Origin: an uncultured bacterium
Lineage (GTDB): Bacteria; Krumholzibacteriota; Krumholzibacteriia; LZORAL124-64-63
Assembly: GCA_937864225.1 (NCBI GenBank)
Contig: CALMJK010000002.1
Span: 67,916 to 131,915, forward strand
Length of the DNA: 64,000 nucleotides
Reading direction: 5' to 3'
Of this stretch, positions 28,328 to 35,852 are shown one piece after another. The translations under genes and the position numbers were made by a program. The notes below the pieces were generated by a model. The model saw nothing but the letters and a program-made list of their open reading frames with translations, was not told where the DNA came from and searched no databases. Within the stretch, counting starts at the first letter, position 1, and each line of letters starts with the position of its first letter.

Positions 28328-31198
28328 TCAGGCCGCGCCGAACAGCTCGCGCAGCATGGCGCCGGTGTACGAGGCGGGCGCGGCCGTGACGTCGGACAAC
28401 TCCCCCTGCGCGACGATCCACCCGCCGTCGCGCCCTCCTTCCGGCCCCATGTCGATGACGCGGTCGGCGCGCCTGATCACGTCCGGGTGGTGTTCGATCA
28501 CGATGACCGTGTCGCCGCGCGCGACCAGCCGCGCGAGCACGTCCAGCAGGCGGTCGACGTCGCAGAAGTGCAGGCCGGTCGTGGGCTCGTCCAGGATGTA
28601 GAGGGTGCGCCCCTGGCCGCCGCGCGACAGCTCGCGCGACAGCTTCAGGCGCTGCGCCTCGCCGCCCGAGAGCGTCGCGCCCGGCTGTCCCAGGCGCAGG
28701 TACCCGAGCCCGACGCCCACCAGCACCTCCAGGATCGGCCGACAGGCCGGGATCGCGCGCAGCAGCTCCAGCGCCTCCTCGACCGGCCGCGCCAGCAGCT
28801 CCGCGATGTTCAGCCCCTTGAAGCGCACCTCGAGGGTCTCGCGCGCGTAGCGGCTGCCGCCGCATTCCTCGCACATCACCTCGACGTCGGGCAGGAAGTC
28901 CATCGTCAGGCGGCGCACGCCCGCTCCCTCGCAGGCGGCGCAGCGCCCGCCCGGCGTGTTGAAGCTGAAGTGCCCCGGCCCCCAACCCCGCATGCGGGCC
29001 AGCTCGGTCTGCGCGAAGAGCGCGCGCACCGGCGTCAGCAGGCCGGTGTAGGTCGCGGGCGTGGAACGGGGCGTGCGGCCGATCGGGTCCTGGTCCACCA
29101 GCACGACCCCGCGCAGCGCCTCTTCCCCCTCGAGCGTGTCGAACGGCTCCGGGCGCGCCGTGGCGTGGTGCATCCTCTGCGCGAGCGCCCGGTAGAGCGT
29201 GTCGTGCACGGCGGTGCTCTTGCCCGAGCCCGACACGCCGGTCACGACGGTGAGGCGCCCGAGCGGGATCTCGAGGTCGATCCCCTTGAGATTGCGCCCG
29301 CGCAGCCCGCGCATGAGGAGCCGCCCCGCCGGCGGCTCGCCGCGCGAGAGCGGCTCCGGCCCGCGCCCGGCCGCGCCGCTGGCCAGGTAGGCGCCGGTGG
29401 AGCTGCCCGGCGTGGCGGCCACTTCCCGCCAGGTGCCCTGCGCCACGATGCGGCCCCCGTGCTCGCCGGCGCCGGGGCCGAGGTCGAGGATGTGGTCGGC
29501 GCCGAGCATGATGTCGCGGTCGTGCTCCACGACCACCACCGTGTTGCCGCGGTCGCGCAGCGCTTCCAGCGTGTCGATCAGCCGCCGGATGTCGCGATGG
29601 TGCAGTCCGACGCTCGGCTCGTCCAGGATGTAGAGCACGCCGGTCAGCCGCGAACCGACCTGGGTGGCCAGCCGCACGCGCTGCCCCTCGCCGCCCGAGA
29701 GCGTGGCGGCGCCGCGATCGAGCGAGAGATAGCCCACGCCCACGCGCTCGAGGAACTGCGCGCGCGCGAGGATTTGCTCGATCACGCGACGACCCGCTTC
29801 CCGGCGGACGCCCGGCGGAAAGGTCAGCTCCCGGCCCCACTCCACCAGTTCGGTCACCGGCAGCGCGCAGGCCTCGCCCACGTGCAGGCCGCCCACGCGC
29901 ACCGCCAGCGCCTCCGGGCGCAGCCGGTAGCCCCGGCAAGCGGTGCATGTGGCCTCTGCCATCAGCTTCTCTATCGTGCCGCGCACCTTGTCGGACTTCG
30001 TCTCGCGGTGCCGGCGCATCAGCTCCGGGATCAGCCCCTGCCACCCCTGCAGGAACGCCTGGTAGTGCACGTGCCGCTGCAGGCGCCGGTCCAGCGCGGG
30101 CGTGAGCCCATGCAGGATGGCGCGCTTGGCCTCCGGCGGCAGGTCGCGGTAGGGCGTCGTGAGGGCGAAGCCCAGCGCGCCCGCCAGCGCCTCGATCTGC
30201 GTGTAGAGCCAGCCCGTCTCCTTGCCCTTCAGGAAGGCGATCGCGCCGTCGGCGAGCGACCGCGCGGCGTCGGGGATCAGGGCGTCTTCGCGCACGGTGC
30301 GCAGGCTGCCCAGCCCGTGACACTCCGGGCAGGAGCCCCGCGGCGAGTTGAACGAGAAGAGCCGCCAGTCCAGCTCGGGGAAGCCGCGGTTGCAGGCCGG
30401 ACACGAACTGAGGCGGCTGTAGAGGACCCGCCCGCCGTCGGCGCGCAGCAGGACCACGGCGCCGGCGCCGAGCGCCGTGGCGCGTTCGAGCGCTTCCGTC
30501 ACGCGCGCCTCGAGGCCCGGCCGCGCCGTCAGCCCGTCCAGCACGACATCGATGTCGTGGCGCTGCGTGGCCGCCAGCGCCGGCGCCGCCTCGAGCTCGA
30601 TCGGCTCCCCGTCCACGAACGCCCGCAGGTAGCCCTGCGCGAGCAGGTCCTGCAGCAGCTTGCGGTGCGCGCCCTTGCGCCCGCGCGCGACCGGCGCCAG
30701 CAGCCAGAAGCGCGTGCCCGTCGGCAGCGCCAGCACCGCGTCGCGGATCTCGGACAGCGGGCGCGACGCCGCCTCGACCCCGCAGTCGGGGCAGACCACG
30801 GTGCCACAGCGGGCGTAGAGCAGCCGCACGTAGCTGGCGATCTCGGTGATGGTCCCGACCGTGGAGCGCGGGCTGCTGCCCAGCCCCTTCTGATCGATGG
30901 CCAGGGCGGGCGAGAGACCTTCGATGCGATCGACGTCGGGCTTGGGCAGTTGGTCCAGGAACTGGTGCGCGAAGCTCGAGAGGCTCTCGATGTAGCGCCG
31001 CTGCCCCTCGGCGTAGAGCGTGTCAAAGGCGAGCGACGACTTGCCCGAGCCGCTCGGCCCCGTGATGACGATCAGCCGGCGTCGCGGCAGCGTGACGTCG
31101 ATGTTCCGCAGATTGTGGACCCGGACCCCCCGGGCTGTGATCCAGCCCGCGCCCCGGGTCGGGGCCGCGTCCCCGCTATGCTCAACCAAGCTCGGCAT
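28328..31198 (-). CDS. uvrA: excinuclease ABC subunit A
   Basis: Start at internal [12 protein letters not shown] (956 aa). Two ABC ATPase modules ([23 protein letters not shown]; [16 protein letters not shown]) and zinc-finger Cys pairs. Confidence 0.9.
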
Positions 31199-31499
31199 GC
31201 CCGCTCCCGCCCGCCGCGCCGCGGGCAATCGTTCATGGTGGGGCGCGGGCCCGGCGGCGTCAAGGAGCCAAGGCTGGCTGTCGCCGCTGGCGGAGCCTCC
31301 CCAAAGGCAAGGCGCTCCGCGACGCGCGATGGCATTTCCCATCAATCCCACCCCGAAAATGCCGATCTCCATGGTGGCACGCCCGTTGCCTCCGGAGGGC
31401 GACGGGCCGCGCGACCACGCGACGAATCGGCATGCCCGCACGCGGGCGTCGCGCCCGGTTCCCCGGCGCGGGAACGGCGCGAAAGGCAGGGAGGACGGT

Positions 31500-32501
31500 A
31501 TGGGCGAGTTGATGGAGATCATCGAGTGGTTCGACGAGTCGGGGCAGGCCATGGCCCACCGCTTCCCGCCGGACGGCTCGGGCGCCCTGAAAATGGGGGC
31601 GCAGCTCATCGTGCGCGAGAGTCAGGAGGCCGTGTTCTTCAGCGGCGGCCGGGCTCTGGACCGCTTCGCGGCGGGCCGCTGGACCCTGAGCACCGCCAAT
31701 CTGCCGCTGCTCACGTCCGCGCTCTCCCTGCCGTGGGGCTTCCGCTCGCCCTTCCGGGCCGAGGTCGTCTTCACCAATCGCAAGACCTTCACCGACCTGC
31801 GCTGGGGCACCCAGGAGCCGGTCATCTTCAAGGACGAGAAGCTCGGCCACGTTCGTCTGCGCGCCTTCGGCAACTACACGCTGCGCGTGGATGACACCCT
31901 GGCGTTCGTCAACCGGGTGGTCGGCACCGCCGGGCATTATGCAACCTCGGAGTTGGAAGGGTTCCTGCGCGACGTCATCGTCGCCCGCCTGAACGACTTC
32001 CTGGGCGAGACCCTCCAGACGATCTTCGACCTGCCGGCCAACTACGACGAGATGGCGAGCGCGATGCAGGCCCGCCTGGGGCCCGACTTCGCCCGCTACG
32101 GTCTGACGCTGGAGGGCTTCTGGATCCAGTCCGTGACGCCGCCTGAAGAGGTGCAGCGCATGGTCGACGGCCAGGGCGGACTGGCGCTCGTGAAGGACAT
32201 GCCGGCCTGGATGCAGTACCAGATGGCCTCGGCGATCGGGCGCGAGCAGACCGGAGGCACGAGCGACCAGCTCGTCGGCGCTGGCCTGGGCGTCGGGGTC
32301 GGCATGATGCTGCCCGGCATGCTGCGCGACGCCCTGCACGTCGGGCCGAGCGGCGGCGCGGGCGCGCCGGCTCCCACCGGCGGCGGCGCCGGCGGCGGCG
32401 CGGCGGGCGCGGGCTTCTGCGCGCAGTGCGGCGCCGCGCTGCCCGGGGGCGCCCGGTTCTGCCCGGGTTGCGGCCGCGCCCTCGACGGTTCGCAGTCATG
32501 A
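31500..32501 (+). CDS. SPFH/band-7 family protein (Band_7_1 type) with C-terminal zinc-ribbon
   Basis: [18 protein letters not shown] with [34 protein letters not shown]...[12 protein letters not shown] is the Band_7_1 signature. C-terminal [19 protein letters not shown] zinc ribbon. Confidence 0.75.
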
Positions 32502-33307
32502 CCGACAGCGCGCCATTGCGCTGCCCGCAATGCGGCGCGCCCCTGCCCACCACGGCCGGCGGCCTCGACCTGCTCTGCCCCTGGTGCCGCTCCACCGTGC
32601 GCCTGGGCGCGCCGGCCGCGCAACGCGAGCTGCTGCTCGTCGACCGCGGCGACCGCGCCGAGGCCGCCCTGCTGCTCGCGCAGCACCTCGCCGCGCGCCA
32701 CGGCCACGACGCGACCGTGCGCGGCGGCGGCGAGTCGCGCCTGCTGCCCTTCTGGTCGGTGCTCACGCGCGACGGCGACCTGCTCACCGGCCCCGCCACC
32801 GCCGAGGAGCCGCAGCTGCTCGCGCGCCTGACGCTCCCCTCGCTGCCCGCCCGTCCGGTGGCCGCGGCGGAGCTGGCCGGCGTCGAACAGGCCCCGGCCG
32901 ACGTGACGCTCGCGGCCTTCCTCGCCGCGCCCCGCGACGCGCGCGAGCCGGCCGCCGCCGTCGCGCCGGAGCAGGTCGAACGCGCCTGGCTGATCTGGGT
33001 GCCGGTGCGCTGCTGGCAGGTGCGCGTCGGCGGGCGCGCGGTGCGCGCCCTGACCGTCGCGGACAGCAGCGTGCCTGTCCTGGCGCCCCTGCCCGCGCCG
33101 GCGCGGCCGCCGGTGCGTTGGCGCCAGCTGCTCGAACTGGGCGCCTGGTGCGGCTGTCTGGTGCTGGCCGGCCGCCTGTTGCCGCTGGCGCTGCACGTGC
33201 CCGTGGCGGCCGCGCTCGTCGTGGCCGGCCTGTGGGCGTGGCGCCGTCCGATCGGCCGCGGCGCCGGGCAGGCCCTGGGCGCGCCGGGCACGGGAGGCCG
33301 GGGATGA
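32498..33307 (+). CDS. zinc-ribbon protein with C-terminal transmembrane segments (hypothetical), paralog 1
   Basis: ATG overlaps the upstream stop (ATGA). N-terminal CPQCGAPL...CPWC. Hydrophobic C-terminus [35 protein letters not shown]. Confidence 0.6.
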
Positions 33308-34425
33308 ACGCGCCCGAGCAGATCGCCAGCCGTCTGCCGGCGCTGGGCTGTCCGGCCTGCGGCGGCCACACCCGACCCGGCCCCGGCGGCCGCCACGACT
33401 GCGATTTCTGCGGCGGCCATTTCCTGGATGCCGTCGGCGGCGGCGTGCCGACCGTCACGCCGGCCCGTCACGTCGGCGCCGCGACCGCGTACCACACCGC
33501 CACCGGCTGGTTGCGCGCGCAGGCGATCCTCGCGCGACCGGCGCCCCGTCCCGGCGACATCTCGCTGCTGTATGTCCCGTACTGGCGCTACGAGGCCACG
33601 CTGTCCGGCTGGCTGCTGACGCGACCCCATCGGCAGGCGCGCGCCCCCGTGCCGGCCGCCTCCGGCCGGCGCGGCGCCAGCGCGGGCGACGAAAGCCAGG
33701 AGAGGCTGGCCGATCTGCTGCGCCGCGCCTCCGGACCGAACGAGGCGCAACGCTTGGCCGAGTTCCTGGCCGCGCGGCCGCCCGGCGAGCGCGACGCCCC
33801 GGCCGGGGGCGGTGCGGACACGCCTGACCGCGGCCTGCGCACGAGCGCGTTGCTGCGCCCGGTGGCGTGGAGCGGGCCGGGCTGCGATGTGCGCGACTTC
33901 GGCCTCGTCGGCGTCCACCGGCTGGTCAGCGACGACCGGCTCACGCCGTTCGATTTCGCCGCGGCCGAACGGACCGGCACCGTCTGCCAGGTCACCGGCA
34001 GCGTGGCCACCGTCCGGCGCCTGGCCGAGCGCGCCATCCTGAACCAGTTGGCCGGCTCGCAGCAGTTGTTGCGCCGCCGCCTCAGTTTCGTGCGTGAGAA
34101 GGTCGAGCTGGTCTACTACCCGCTGTACGTCTTCAAGTATCGCGCGCGGGGGCTGGCCTGCCGGCTGGTCCTGGACGGCGCGCGCGGCGAGCTGCTGGCG
34201 GGCAGCCGGCCGGCGGCGCAGCCGGACGGCCTGTGGCGGCTGTTCTGCGGCACCGCGCTCTGGAGCTGCGTCTGGAGCGCCAGCGCGCAGGCGGGAGCGG
34301 GCTGCCTGCCCGCGCTCTGGCTGGGCGACGGCTGGGCTCGCAACCACCTCGCCTCGCCGCGCGAGCTGGCGCTGCGCGCGCAGGCGGCGCTGGAGCCGCC
34401 GCGCGTGACCGTCGAGGAGTTTTGA
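33304..34425 (+). CDS. zinc-ribbon domain protein (hypothetical), paralog 2
   Basis: ATGA overlap with paralog 1. N-terminal CPACGG...CDFCGG. Internal LLYVPYWRY and LVYYPLYVFKYR motifs. Confidence 0.6.
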   Translation: MNAPEQIASRLPALGCPACGGHTRPGPGGRHDCDFCGGHFLDAVGGGVPTVTPARHVGAATAYHTATGWLRAQAILARPAPRPGDISLLYVPYWRYEATLSGWLLTRPHRQARAPVPAASGRRGASAGDESQERLADLLRRASGPNEAQRLAEFLAARPPGERDAPAGGGADTPDRGLRTSALLRPVAWSGPGCDVRDFGLVGVHRLVSDDRLTPFDFAAAERTGTVCQVTGSVATVRRLAERAILNQLAGSQQLLRRRLSFVREKVELVYYPLYVFKYRARGLACRLVLDGARGELLAGSRPAAQPDGLWRLFCGTALWSCVWSASAQAGAGCLPALWLGDGWARNHLASPRELALRAQAALEPPRVTVEEF

Positions 34426-34447
34426 GCGTGCGGAAGGGGGCGCGACG

Positions 34448-35125
34448 ATGACTTTGGTGCGACTGGCCTGCCCGAACTGCGGCACCGACCTGACGGGACC
34501 GCCCGGCGCGGTGCTCTTCCCGTGCGCGGGCTGCGGGCAAACGTGCGAGGCGGCGGCCGGCCGGCTGCGCCGCGTCGCGACCCGCGCCCTCGCGCCGCGC
34601 CGCGAGGCGCGGGACCGGCGGCTCGTGCACCTGCCGTGCTGGTGCTTCACGCTGACGTGCGTCGCGGACGCGCCTGTCGCGGGCCTGCCGCCCCGCGTCG
34701 TCGTGCCGTCGGTGGGCCCGATGCCCGGCGGCATCTTCCTGCGCCTGGCGCGCGGCCTGAGCATGGCGGCGAAGGGCTGGGCCGCGCCGGCCGTGGGCGC
34801 CTCCGCCGCGGCCCCCGCCGGGGCGCTGCCCGGACGGCTGGGCGTGGCCGACGCCCTGGCCCTGGCGCAGACCGTGGCCCTGGCCTGTGTGCCGGGCACG
34901 GTGCGGGCGGGACTCTTGACCGCCGAGCCTTTCCCGCTGCGGCTGGCGGACGCCGAACTGGTTTGGCTCCCCTGCGCGTTCAACGGCGCCCGCTGCGAGG
35001 ACCTCCTGGTGGGCCTCGACGTCCACGCGCGCCTGCTCGAAGGCGGACAACAGGCGCCTACGGCGCGGCCGGCGCGCCCGCCGGAGGGCGTTCCCGCCGA
35101 CGATCCGGTCGGCGCGCCCCGCTGA
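34448..35125 (+). CDS. zinc-ribbon domain protein (hypothetical), paralog 3
   Basis: N-terminal CPNCGTDL...CAGCGQ. LVHLPCWCF and LVWLPCAF motifs parallel paralogs 1 and 2. Confidence 0.55.
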   Translation: MTLVRLACPNCGTDLTGPPGAVLFPCAGCGQTCEAAAGRLRRVATRALAPRREARDRRLVHLPCWCFTLTCVADAPVAGLPPRVVVPSVGPMPGGIFLRLARGLSMAAKGWAAPAVGASAAAPAGALPGRLGVADALALAQTVALACVPGTVRAGLLTAEPFPLRLADAELVWLPCAFNGARCEDLLVGLDVHARLLEGGQQAPTARPARPPEGVPADDPVGAPR

Positions 35126-35135
35126 AGCGCGGCGG

Positions 35136-35852
35136 CTACCGCGGATCGGCCGTGACGCCGGCGGCCGCCGCCCGCTCGGCGTCGGTCAGCGCCGCGGTCC
35201 CCTCCAACACGGTCATCTTGATGATGCGGATCGGGACGACGGGATTGTCGCCCGCGTCGCGCTGCGCGCCGACGATGCGATCCACCGCGTCCATGCCGGC
35301 GACGACCTGCCCGAAGATGCTGTACTTGTTGTCGAGCGCCGGCGCGTCCGCCACGCAGACGAAGAACTGGCTGCCCGCGGAGTTGGGATCCTGCGAGCGC
35401 GCCATGGAGAGGGTGCCGCGCTGGTGCTCGGCCGTCGGCGAGAACTCTGCCCGCAGCCGCGCCGGCCCGGTCAGGTCGAGGCCCACGTAGCCCCGTTCCT
35501 CCAGCACGCGCGAGGCGGCCTGCACCGCCGCTCGCTCCTGGGGCCCGAGCACGTCCGCCAGCGTGGGCCCGCCCGTGCCGTCGTCGCGCCGCTCGGCGTT
35601 GCGCGTGTTGGGATCGCCGCCCTGGATCACGAAGCCGGGCACCACGCGATGGAAATAGAGGCCATCGAAGAACCCGGCCCGCGCCAGGTGGGTGAAGTTC
35701 CCGACGTGGTGCGGCGCGAGCTCGGGCTGCATCTGGATCAGGAACGAACCCGAGTCGGTTTCGCAGCGCACGAACAGATCCGTCGCTCCGGCCGGCGCCG
35801 CGACCGCGAGCAGGGCGACCAGGACACACACGAGATGCGCGACCAGTTTCAT
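35136..35852 (-). CDS. peptidyl-prolyl cis-trans isomerase, cyclophilin type (secreted)
   Basis: Signal peptide MKLVAHLVCVLVALLAVAAPAGA. FHRVVPGFVIQGGDP...GTLSMARS...NSAGSQFFVC cyclophilin core with an internal insertion. Confidence 0.85.
   Translation of the reverse strand: MKLVAHLVCVLVALLAVAAPAGATDLFVRCETDSGSFLIQMQPELAPHHVGNFTHLARAGFFDGLYFHRVVPGFVIQGGDPNTRNAERRDDGTGGPTLADVLGPQERAAVQAASRVLEERGYVGLDLTGPARLRAEFSPTAEHQRGTLSMARSQDPNSAGSQFFVCVADAPALDNKYSIFGQVVAGMDAVDRIVGAQRDAGDNPVVPIRIIKMTVLEGTAALTDAERAAAAGVTADPR

Follow-up and report, generated by a model that had tools for sequence, protein, structure and literature searches.

An operon of one SPFH protein and three zinc-ribbon paralogs related to the YdjG/YdjI (SamG/SamI) membrane-stress module of Bacillus subtilis

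Introduction

Soluble SPFH proteins of the Band_7_1 type are common in bacteria. To our knowledge, only one of them has been studied, namely YdjI (SamI) of Bacillus subtilis. An operon in which such a protein is followed by three zinc-ribbon proteins, found in a 64-kb stretch of Krumholzibacteriota DNA (hereafter the window), raises the question of what kind of membrane system these four proteins constitute. The original prediction held the combination of an SPFH protein with zinc-ribbon partners to be an undescribed pairing. That view has to be given up, since the pspA-ydjGHI (samGHI) operon of B. subtilis already pairs YdjI, a Band_7_1 protein with a zinc ribbon, with the zinc-ribbon membrane protein YdjG (PMC8581546, PMC11237479, bioRxiv 10.64898/2026.02.06.704340). 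The operon of the window is an undescribed relative of this YdjG/YdjI (SamG/SamI) membrane-stress module and not a new kind of system; it represents a widespread variant, with a function that can be proposed by analogy.

Gene organization of the operon

The four co-directional genes at positions 31500-35125 form a real operon (Table 1). The ATG of g2 overlaps the stop codon of the SPFH gene as ATGA, and the start of g3 overlaps the stop codon of g2 in a second ATGA, both junctions being as first described; the 22 nt between g3 and g4 contain a GGAAGGGGG ribosome-binding site. Two overlaps and a gap of this size amount to tight translational coupling, consistent with co-assembly, and a putative fixed stoichiometry of the products is plausible. 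Chance ORFs of GC-rich DNA do not explain the genes, because orthologs at 51-77% identity retain the same block, because gene order is kept in relatives where g3 is only about 22-27% identical and because the AlphaFold model of g3 is confident (pLDDT 83.9).

Divergence from uvrA across some 300 nt had been noted, and with the likeliest uvrA start at 31198 on the minus strand the intergenic region measures 301 nt. At its 3' end, upstream of the SPFH gene, lies the ribosome-binding site GGGAGGA. A search of this region by pattern for the LexA/SOS boxes evoked in the original prediction found no LexA-type box (CTG-N10-CAG, GAAC-N4-GTTC, GTTC-N7-GTTC or TTAG...CTAA palindrome). Scans of positions 31000-35400 for sigma-70 and terminator consensus sequences gave no match and are uninformative in 72% GC DNA from a little-known phylum.

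Table 1. Coordinates of the operon, its upstream region and the domains of its products
Feature	Position (nt)	Strand	Residues (aa)	Description
uvrA/SPFH divergent intergenic region	31199..31499	.		Presumed promoter region; from sequence and start codons
SPFH gene	31500..32501	+	333 (length)	YdjI/SamI-like soluble SPFH protein
SPFH zinc ribbon	32415..32483		306-328	C-terminal, CAQC...CPGC
g2	32498..33307	+	269 (length)	Short YdjG-like paralog, membrane-anchored
g2 zinc ribbon	32522..32587		9-30	CPQC...CPWC
g2 hairpin	33119..33244		208-249	Predicted C-terminal two-helix membrane hairpin; helices 208-227 and 230-249
g3	33304..34425	+	373 (length)	Long YdjG/SamG-family paralog
g3 zinc ribbon	33349..33411		16-36	CPAC...CDFC
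g3 insert	33628..33837		109-178	Lineage-specific, between PepSY-like N-module and C-module
g3 hairpin	34231..34341		310-346	Predicted helical hairpin (AlphaFold model); helices 310-326 and 328-346
g4	34448..35125	+	225 (length)	Soluble paralog
g4 zinc ribbon	34469..34534		8-29	CPNC...CAGC

The neighbours of the operon are housekeeping genes (uvrA, gcvT/H, cyclophilin and cysteine desulfurase), the flanking synteny is kept across the Krumholzibacteriota relatives of the window (L001-L003) and the GC content of the cassette equals that of the flanks. SPFH/Band-7 domains are found in some conflict systems. This background, the uncharacterized partners and a patchy distribution would suit a cassette for anti-phage defence or abortive infection with the SPFH protein at its centre. 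All three features of the locus just listed argue against such a cassette, as does the lack of an effector domain (nuclease, protease or pore-former) in its products. Moreover, searches with PADLOC-DB v2 returned zero families for all four proteins, two family members and YdjG, and no relative was detected among 2.9 million viral contigs. Readings as a defence system or as phage genes were rejected on these negative searches, and a defensive role is highly improbable.

The SPFH protein

The product of the first gene matches Pfam Band_7_1 (PF13421) at aa 20-226 with an E value of 2e-63 (214.1 bits for a cut-off of 24). A Gly-rich linker (aa ~250-305) leads to the CxxC...CxxC zinc ribbon that had been recognized at its C-terminus and that scores above the Zn_Ribbon_1 cut-off (28.9 bits against 25). 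No hydrophobic segment or membrane anchor is present along the protein. Authentic YdjI has the same layout, with Band_7_1, a low-complexity linker and a C-terminal zinc ribbon, and BLASTP aligns the two proteins over 329 aa, the full length, at 26% identity (E 8e-40). Judged from this similarity, the SPFH protein is of the YdjI/SamI type. It is closer to its counterparts in other four-gene cassettes, at 46-55% identity across lineages, while the partners in these cassettes are only about 22-28% identical. A PDB sequence search with the SPFH protein gave no match.

The best-known role of bacterial SPFH proteins is to regulate a protease in the membrane or a partner of the NfeD type, as HflK/C does with FtsH or QmcA with YbbJ (SPFH-NfeD), and the JGI annotation of cassette SPFH proteins as 'membrane protease subunit (stomatin/prohibitin family)' points in this direction. 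There too, a protein of the SPFH fold has its own membrane partners encoded beside it, and it presumably forms oligomers at the membrane. However, the SPFH proteins of these systems are membrane-anchored, have long coiled-coils and enclose their protease or NfeD client, whereas that of the window is a soluble Band_7_1 protein, without transmembrane anchor or the long HflK/C coiled-coil, and has zinc-ribbon/PepSY-like partners. No protease or NfeD gene occurs in the operon or in any cassette locus, and the SPFH protein matches canonical Band_7 (E 4e-9) much more weakly than it does Band_7_1. A classical SPFH-client pair is thus very improbable here. The flotillins FloA and FloT are SPFH-superfamily members too, with functions in membrane organization and fluidity, but they bind the membrane by themselves through a transmembrane helix or hairpin and have the coiled-coil repeats of flotillins, neither of which is seen in the SPFH protein of the window.

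Architecture and kinship of the three zinc-ribbon paralogs

Kinship among g2, g3 and g4, claimed in the original prediction, escapes pairwise BLASTP (not significant, best E 0.05), and hhalign on shallow alignments of close relatives gives weak values (30-84%) that mostly reflect the ribbon. It is resolved only with class members gathered from distant loci. With these, hhalign relates g2 to g3 at 99.9% (E 6e-36), and the g4 class to the g3 family (E 6.7e-13) and to the g2 class (E 9e-13), both at 98.1%. By profile comparison, the three proteins are true paralogs, homologous along the whole of their predicted cytoplasmic part. The five aromatic motifs listed for them earlier are all found.

A single CxxC...CxxC ribbon, with cysteines invariant among orthologs, opens each paralog; the predicted signature CPxCG...CxxCG fails in the second half of the g2 ribbon, which reads CPWCR. 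In the fold models of g2 and g3, the ribbon is followed by a domain of PepSY/cystatin-like fold and, at the C-terminus, by a helical hairpin. The membrane anchor foreseen for the first paralog corresponds to a hydrophobic C-terminus at residues 214-248 of g2, but the hairpin of g3, which is followed by a terminal helix and strand, had been missed. In g4, the fastest-evolving of the three, the ribbon precedes the same core domain as in g2 and g3, and no membrane segment is detected, so that this protein is a soluble derivative. The best structural matches to the core of g2 and g3 are YpeB and YpmB (PDB 5boi and 2gu3), which share a curved antiparallel sheet with a helix packed against it. In YpeB and YpmB the domain lies outside the cytoplasm and is not accompanied by a zinc ribbon. 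In the window proteins it stands between an N-terminal ribbon and a C-terminal hairpin, a signal peptide is lacking, and a cytoplasmic location is therefore predicted.

No model of Pfam, NCBIfam or PADLOC covers the three paralogs. Could they be membrane-tethered DNA-binding proteins or transcription factors, after the TFIIB-type annotation of the YdjG ribbon? The first ribbon of YdjG matches Pfam Zn_Ribbon_TF, and a regulatory DNA-binding role was suggested in an earlier preprint (10.1101/2021.02.15.431232). However, no ribbon of the window paralogs reaches a Pfam cut-off; they look like generic ribbons of the RpoP/L37ae type, and a PDB sequence search with the g3 family returned generic ribbons only. 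The proteins contain no HTH or other DNA-binding domain and consist otherwise of the PepSY-like part and the membrane hairpin; no means of releasing them, for instance a protease site or a partner protease, is encoded. A function in transcription is accordingly very improbable, if a shade less so than defence or protease regulation.

Relationship with the YdjG/YdjI (SamG/SamI) module

Authentic YdjG loci were retrieved by a pattern search based on a published primer, and the g3-family profile matches the YdjG (SamG) of B. subtilis at 80 bits. Apart from this profile homology, the traits of the YdjG/SamG family found in the window are the N-terminal ribbon and the central YpeB-related (PepSY/NTF2-like) domain; the C-terminal transmembrane segment is present in g2 and g3 but not in g4. 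YdjG is described as a protein with zinc ribbons, a YpeB-related domain and a transmembrane segment (PMC11237479), and the fold models of g2 and g3 agree with this architecture. In both organisms, a soluble Band_7_1 protein with a low-complexity linker and a C-terminal ribbon is encoded beside a YdjG-type protein, in one operon with overlapping genes.

The two operons also differ in several respects. YdjG has two zinc ribbons, while each paralog of the window has one, and the single YdjG-type gene is replaced by three diverged paralogs, one short and anchored, one long and anchored, and one soluble. The SPFH gene comes first in the window and last in B. subtilis. Finally, pspA and the gene for the TPM-domain protein YdjH (SamH) are missing from the operon of the window. 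A phmmer search of all ORFs of the window with PspA of the B. subtilis group gave a best E value of 0.02, and none of the other cassette loci has PspA among its Pfam matches. Authentic YdjH matches TPM_phosphatase at 7.6e-22, whereas the operon proteins show no such match and the window contains no YdjH homolog.

Distribution of the cassette

That the downstream genes might not be conserved beside Band_7_1 genes in other genomes had been named as a possible refutation; the cassette is in fact found in several unrelated lineages. Homolog searches reached close relatives only, with 12 for g3, 11 for g2 and just the protein itself for g4, and a search for related loci with a narrow alignment returned only four genome loci. 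The four-gene cassette recurs in unrelated genomic contexts of Krumholzibacteriota, a Bacillota MAG and metagenomes, with GC contents of 45-72%. The arrangement SPFH-g2-g3-g4 is seen in six independent contexts besides the lineage of the window (L007-9, L012, L013, L014, L016 and L020), among which L016 has a variant gene order and no visible g4-class gene. All sampled loci contain the g2-g3 pair, and an SPFH gene adjoins it in about 60%. In about four of ten sampled lineages (L010, L011, L017 and L018), including Anaerolineae, g2-g3(-g4) occurs without an adjacent SPFH gene, which indicates that the paralogs probably have a role not strictly needing a cis-encoded SPFH protein. The Anaerolineae locus (L017) has a g4-like module fused to a g3-class protein. 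Upstream of some cassettes lies a conserved coiled-coil protein of 169-172 aa, with neither a Pfam match nor a counterpart in the window.

A proposed mechanism

In B. subtilis, YdjI is soluble, and its membrane foci require YdjG and YdjH; in two-hybrid assays YdjI contacts YdjH, the TPM protein, and PspA, while YdjG contacts YdjH and not YdjI directly (PMC8581546). From these experiments and from the architecture of the proteins, we infer that the operon probably specifies a module of the YdjI/YdjG (SamI/SamG) type that acts as a membrane scaffold. Devoid of an anchor of its own, the SPFH protein would reach the membrane through its partners. The C-terminal hairpins of g2 and g3 would tether the cytoplasmic ribbon and PepSY-like parts of these proteins to the inner side of the membrane, and together with g4 they would most likely form a hetero-oligomeric platform there. 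This platform would dock the SPFH protein, which would oligomerize on it, and the assembly may organize or monitor a patch of membrane in envelope maintenance or stress handling. Direct docking on YdjG-like proteins is an extrapolation, since the B. subtilis contacts of YdjI are with YdjH and PspA, both absent here.

A neighbouring explanation overlaps with this scaffold but reverses which partner serves which. In it, the three zinc-ribbon proteins are the main functional unit and act as a sensor or signalling complex associated with the membrane, and the SPFH protein is an accessory brake or regulator and not anchored cargo. The parallel is found in B. subtilis, where loss of SamI is reported to leave SamGH activity unrestrained and deletion of samH to suppress the effect (bioRxiv 10.64898/2026.02.06.704340), and where SamI is proposed to restrain SamG-SamH signalling. 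The constancy of the g2-g3 pair, set against the less regular presence of SPFH, speaks for this role, as do the neighbours of SPFH-less trios, which include membrane or envelope genes, namely a PLD-family enzyme (L011), a bPH_2 protein (L018) and uppP (L010). Against it, the three paralogs have no recognizable output domain (kinase, HTH or cyclase), the B. subtilis phenotype needed SamH, and the most conserved component of the cassette is the SPFH protein. Such a division of roles is rather unlikely, though well ahead of the defence, protease and transcription readings.

The scaffold reading also has a bolder form, which is somewhat less likely than not. The cassette may be a distinct, PspA-independent SPFH system found across phyla, in which the paralogs form a pseudo-symmetric hetero-oligomer that serves a cytoplasmic SPFH assembly as its dedicated receptor at the membrane. 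The C-terminal ribbons of the SPFH protein, one to three in number, might engage the partner proteins. It is tempting to propose that these paralogs are the common partner set of this Band_7_1 subfamily, and that PspA-SamGHI of B. subtilis, with one YdjG, a TPM protein and PspA, is a derived Firmicute variant.

Significance

Current ideas are not overturned by this locus. The YdjG-like tether is part of a much larger family, left out of Pfam and NCBIfam, whose members usually occur as conserved sets of two or three paralogs, in many cases immediately after an SPFH gene that is itself well conserved. The occurrence of this family without PspA or TPM partners makes the SPFH/YdjG link separable from the phage-shock link and offers a simpler module to test. 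One narrow profile already gathers 241 cluster representatives of the paralog family, and some of these carry misleading labels, for example 'RNA polymerase subunit RpoP' or 'ribosomal protein L37AE', that can now be corrected.

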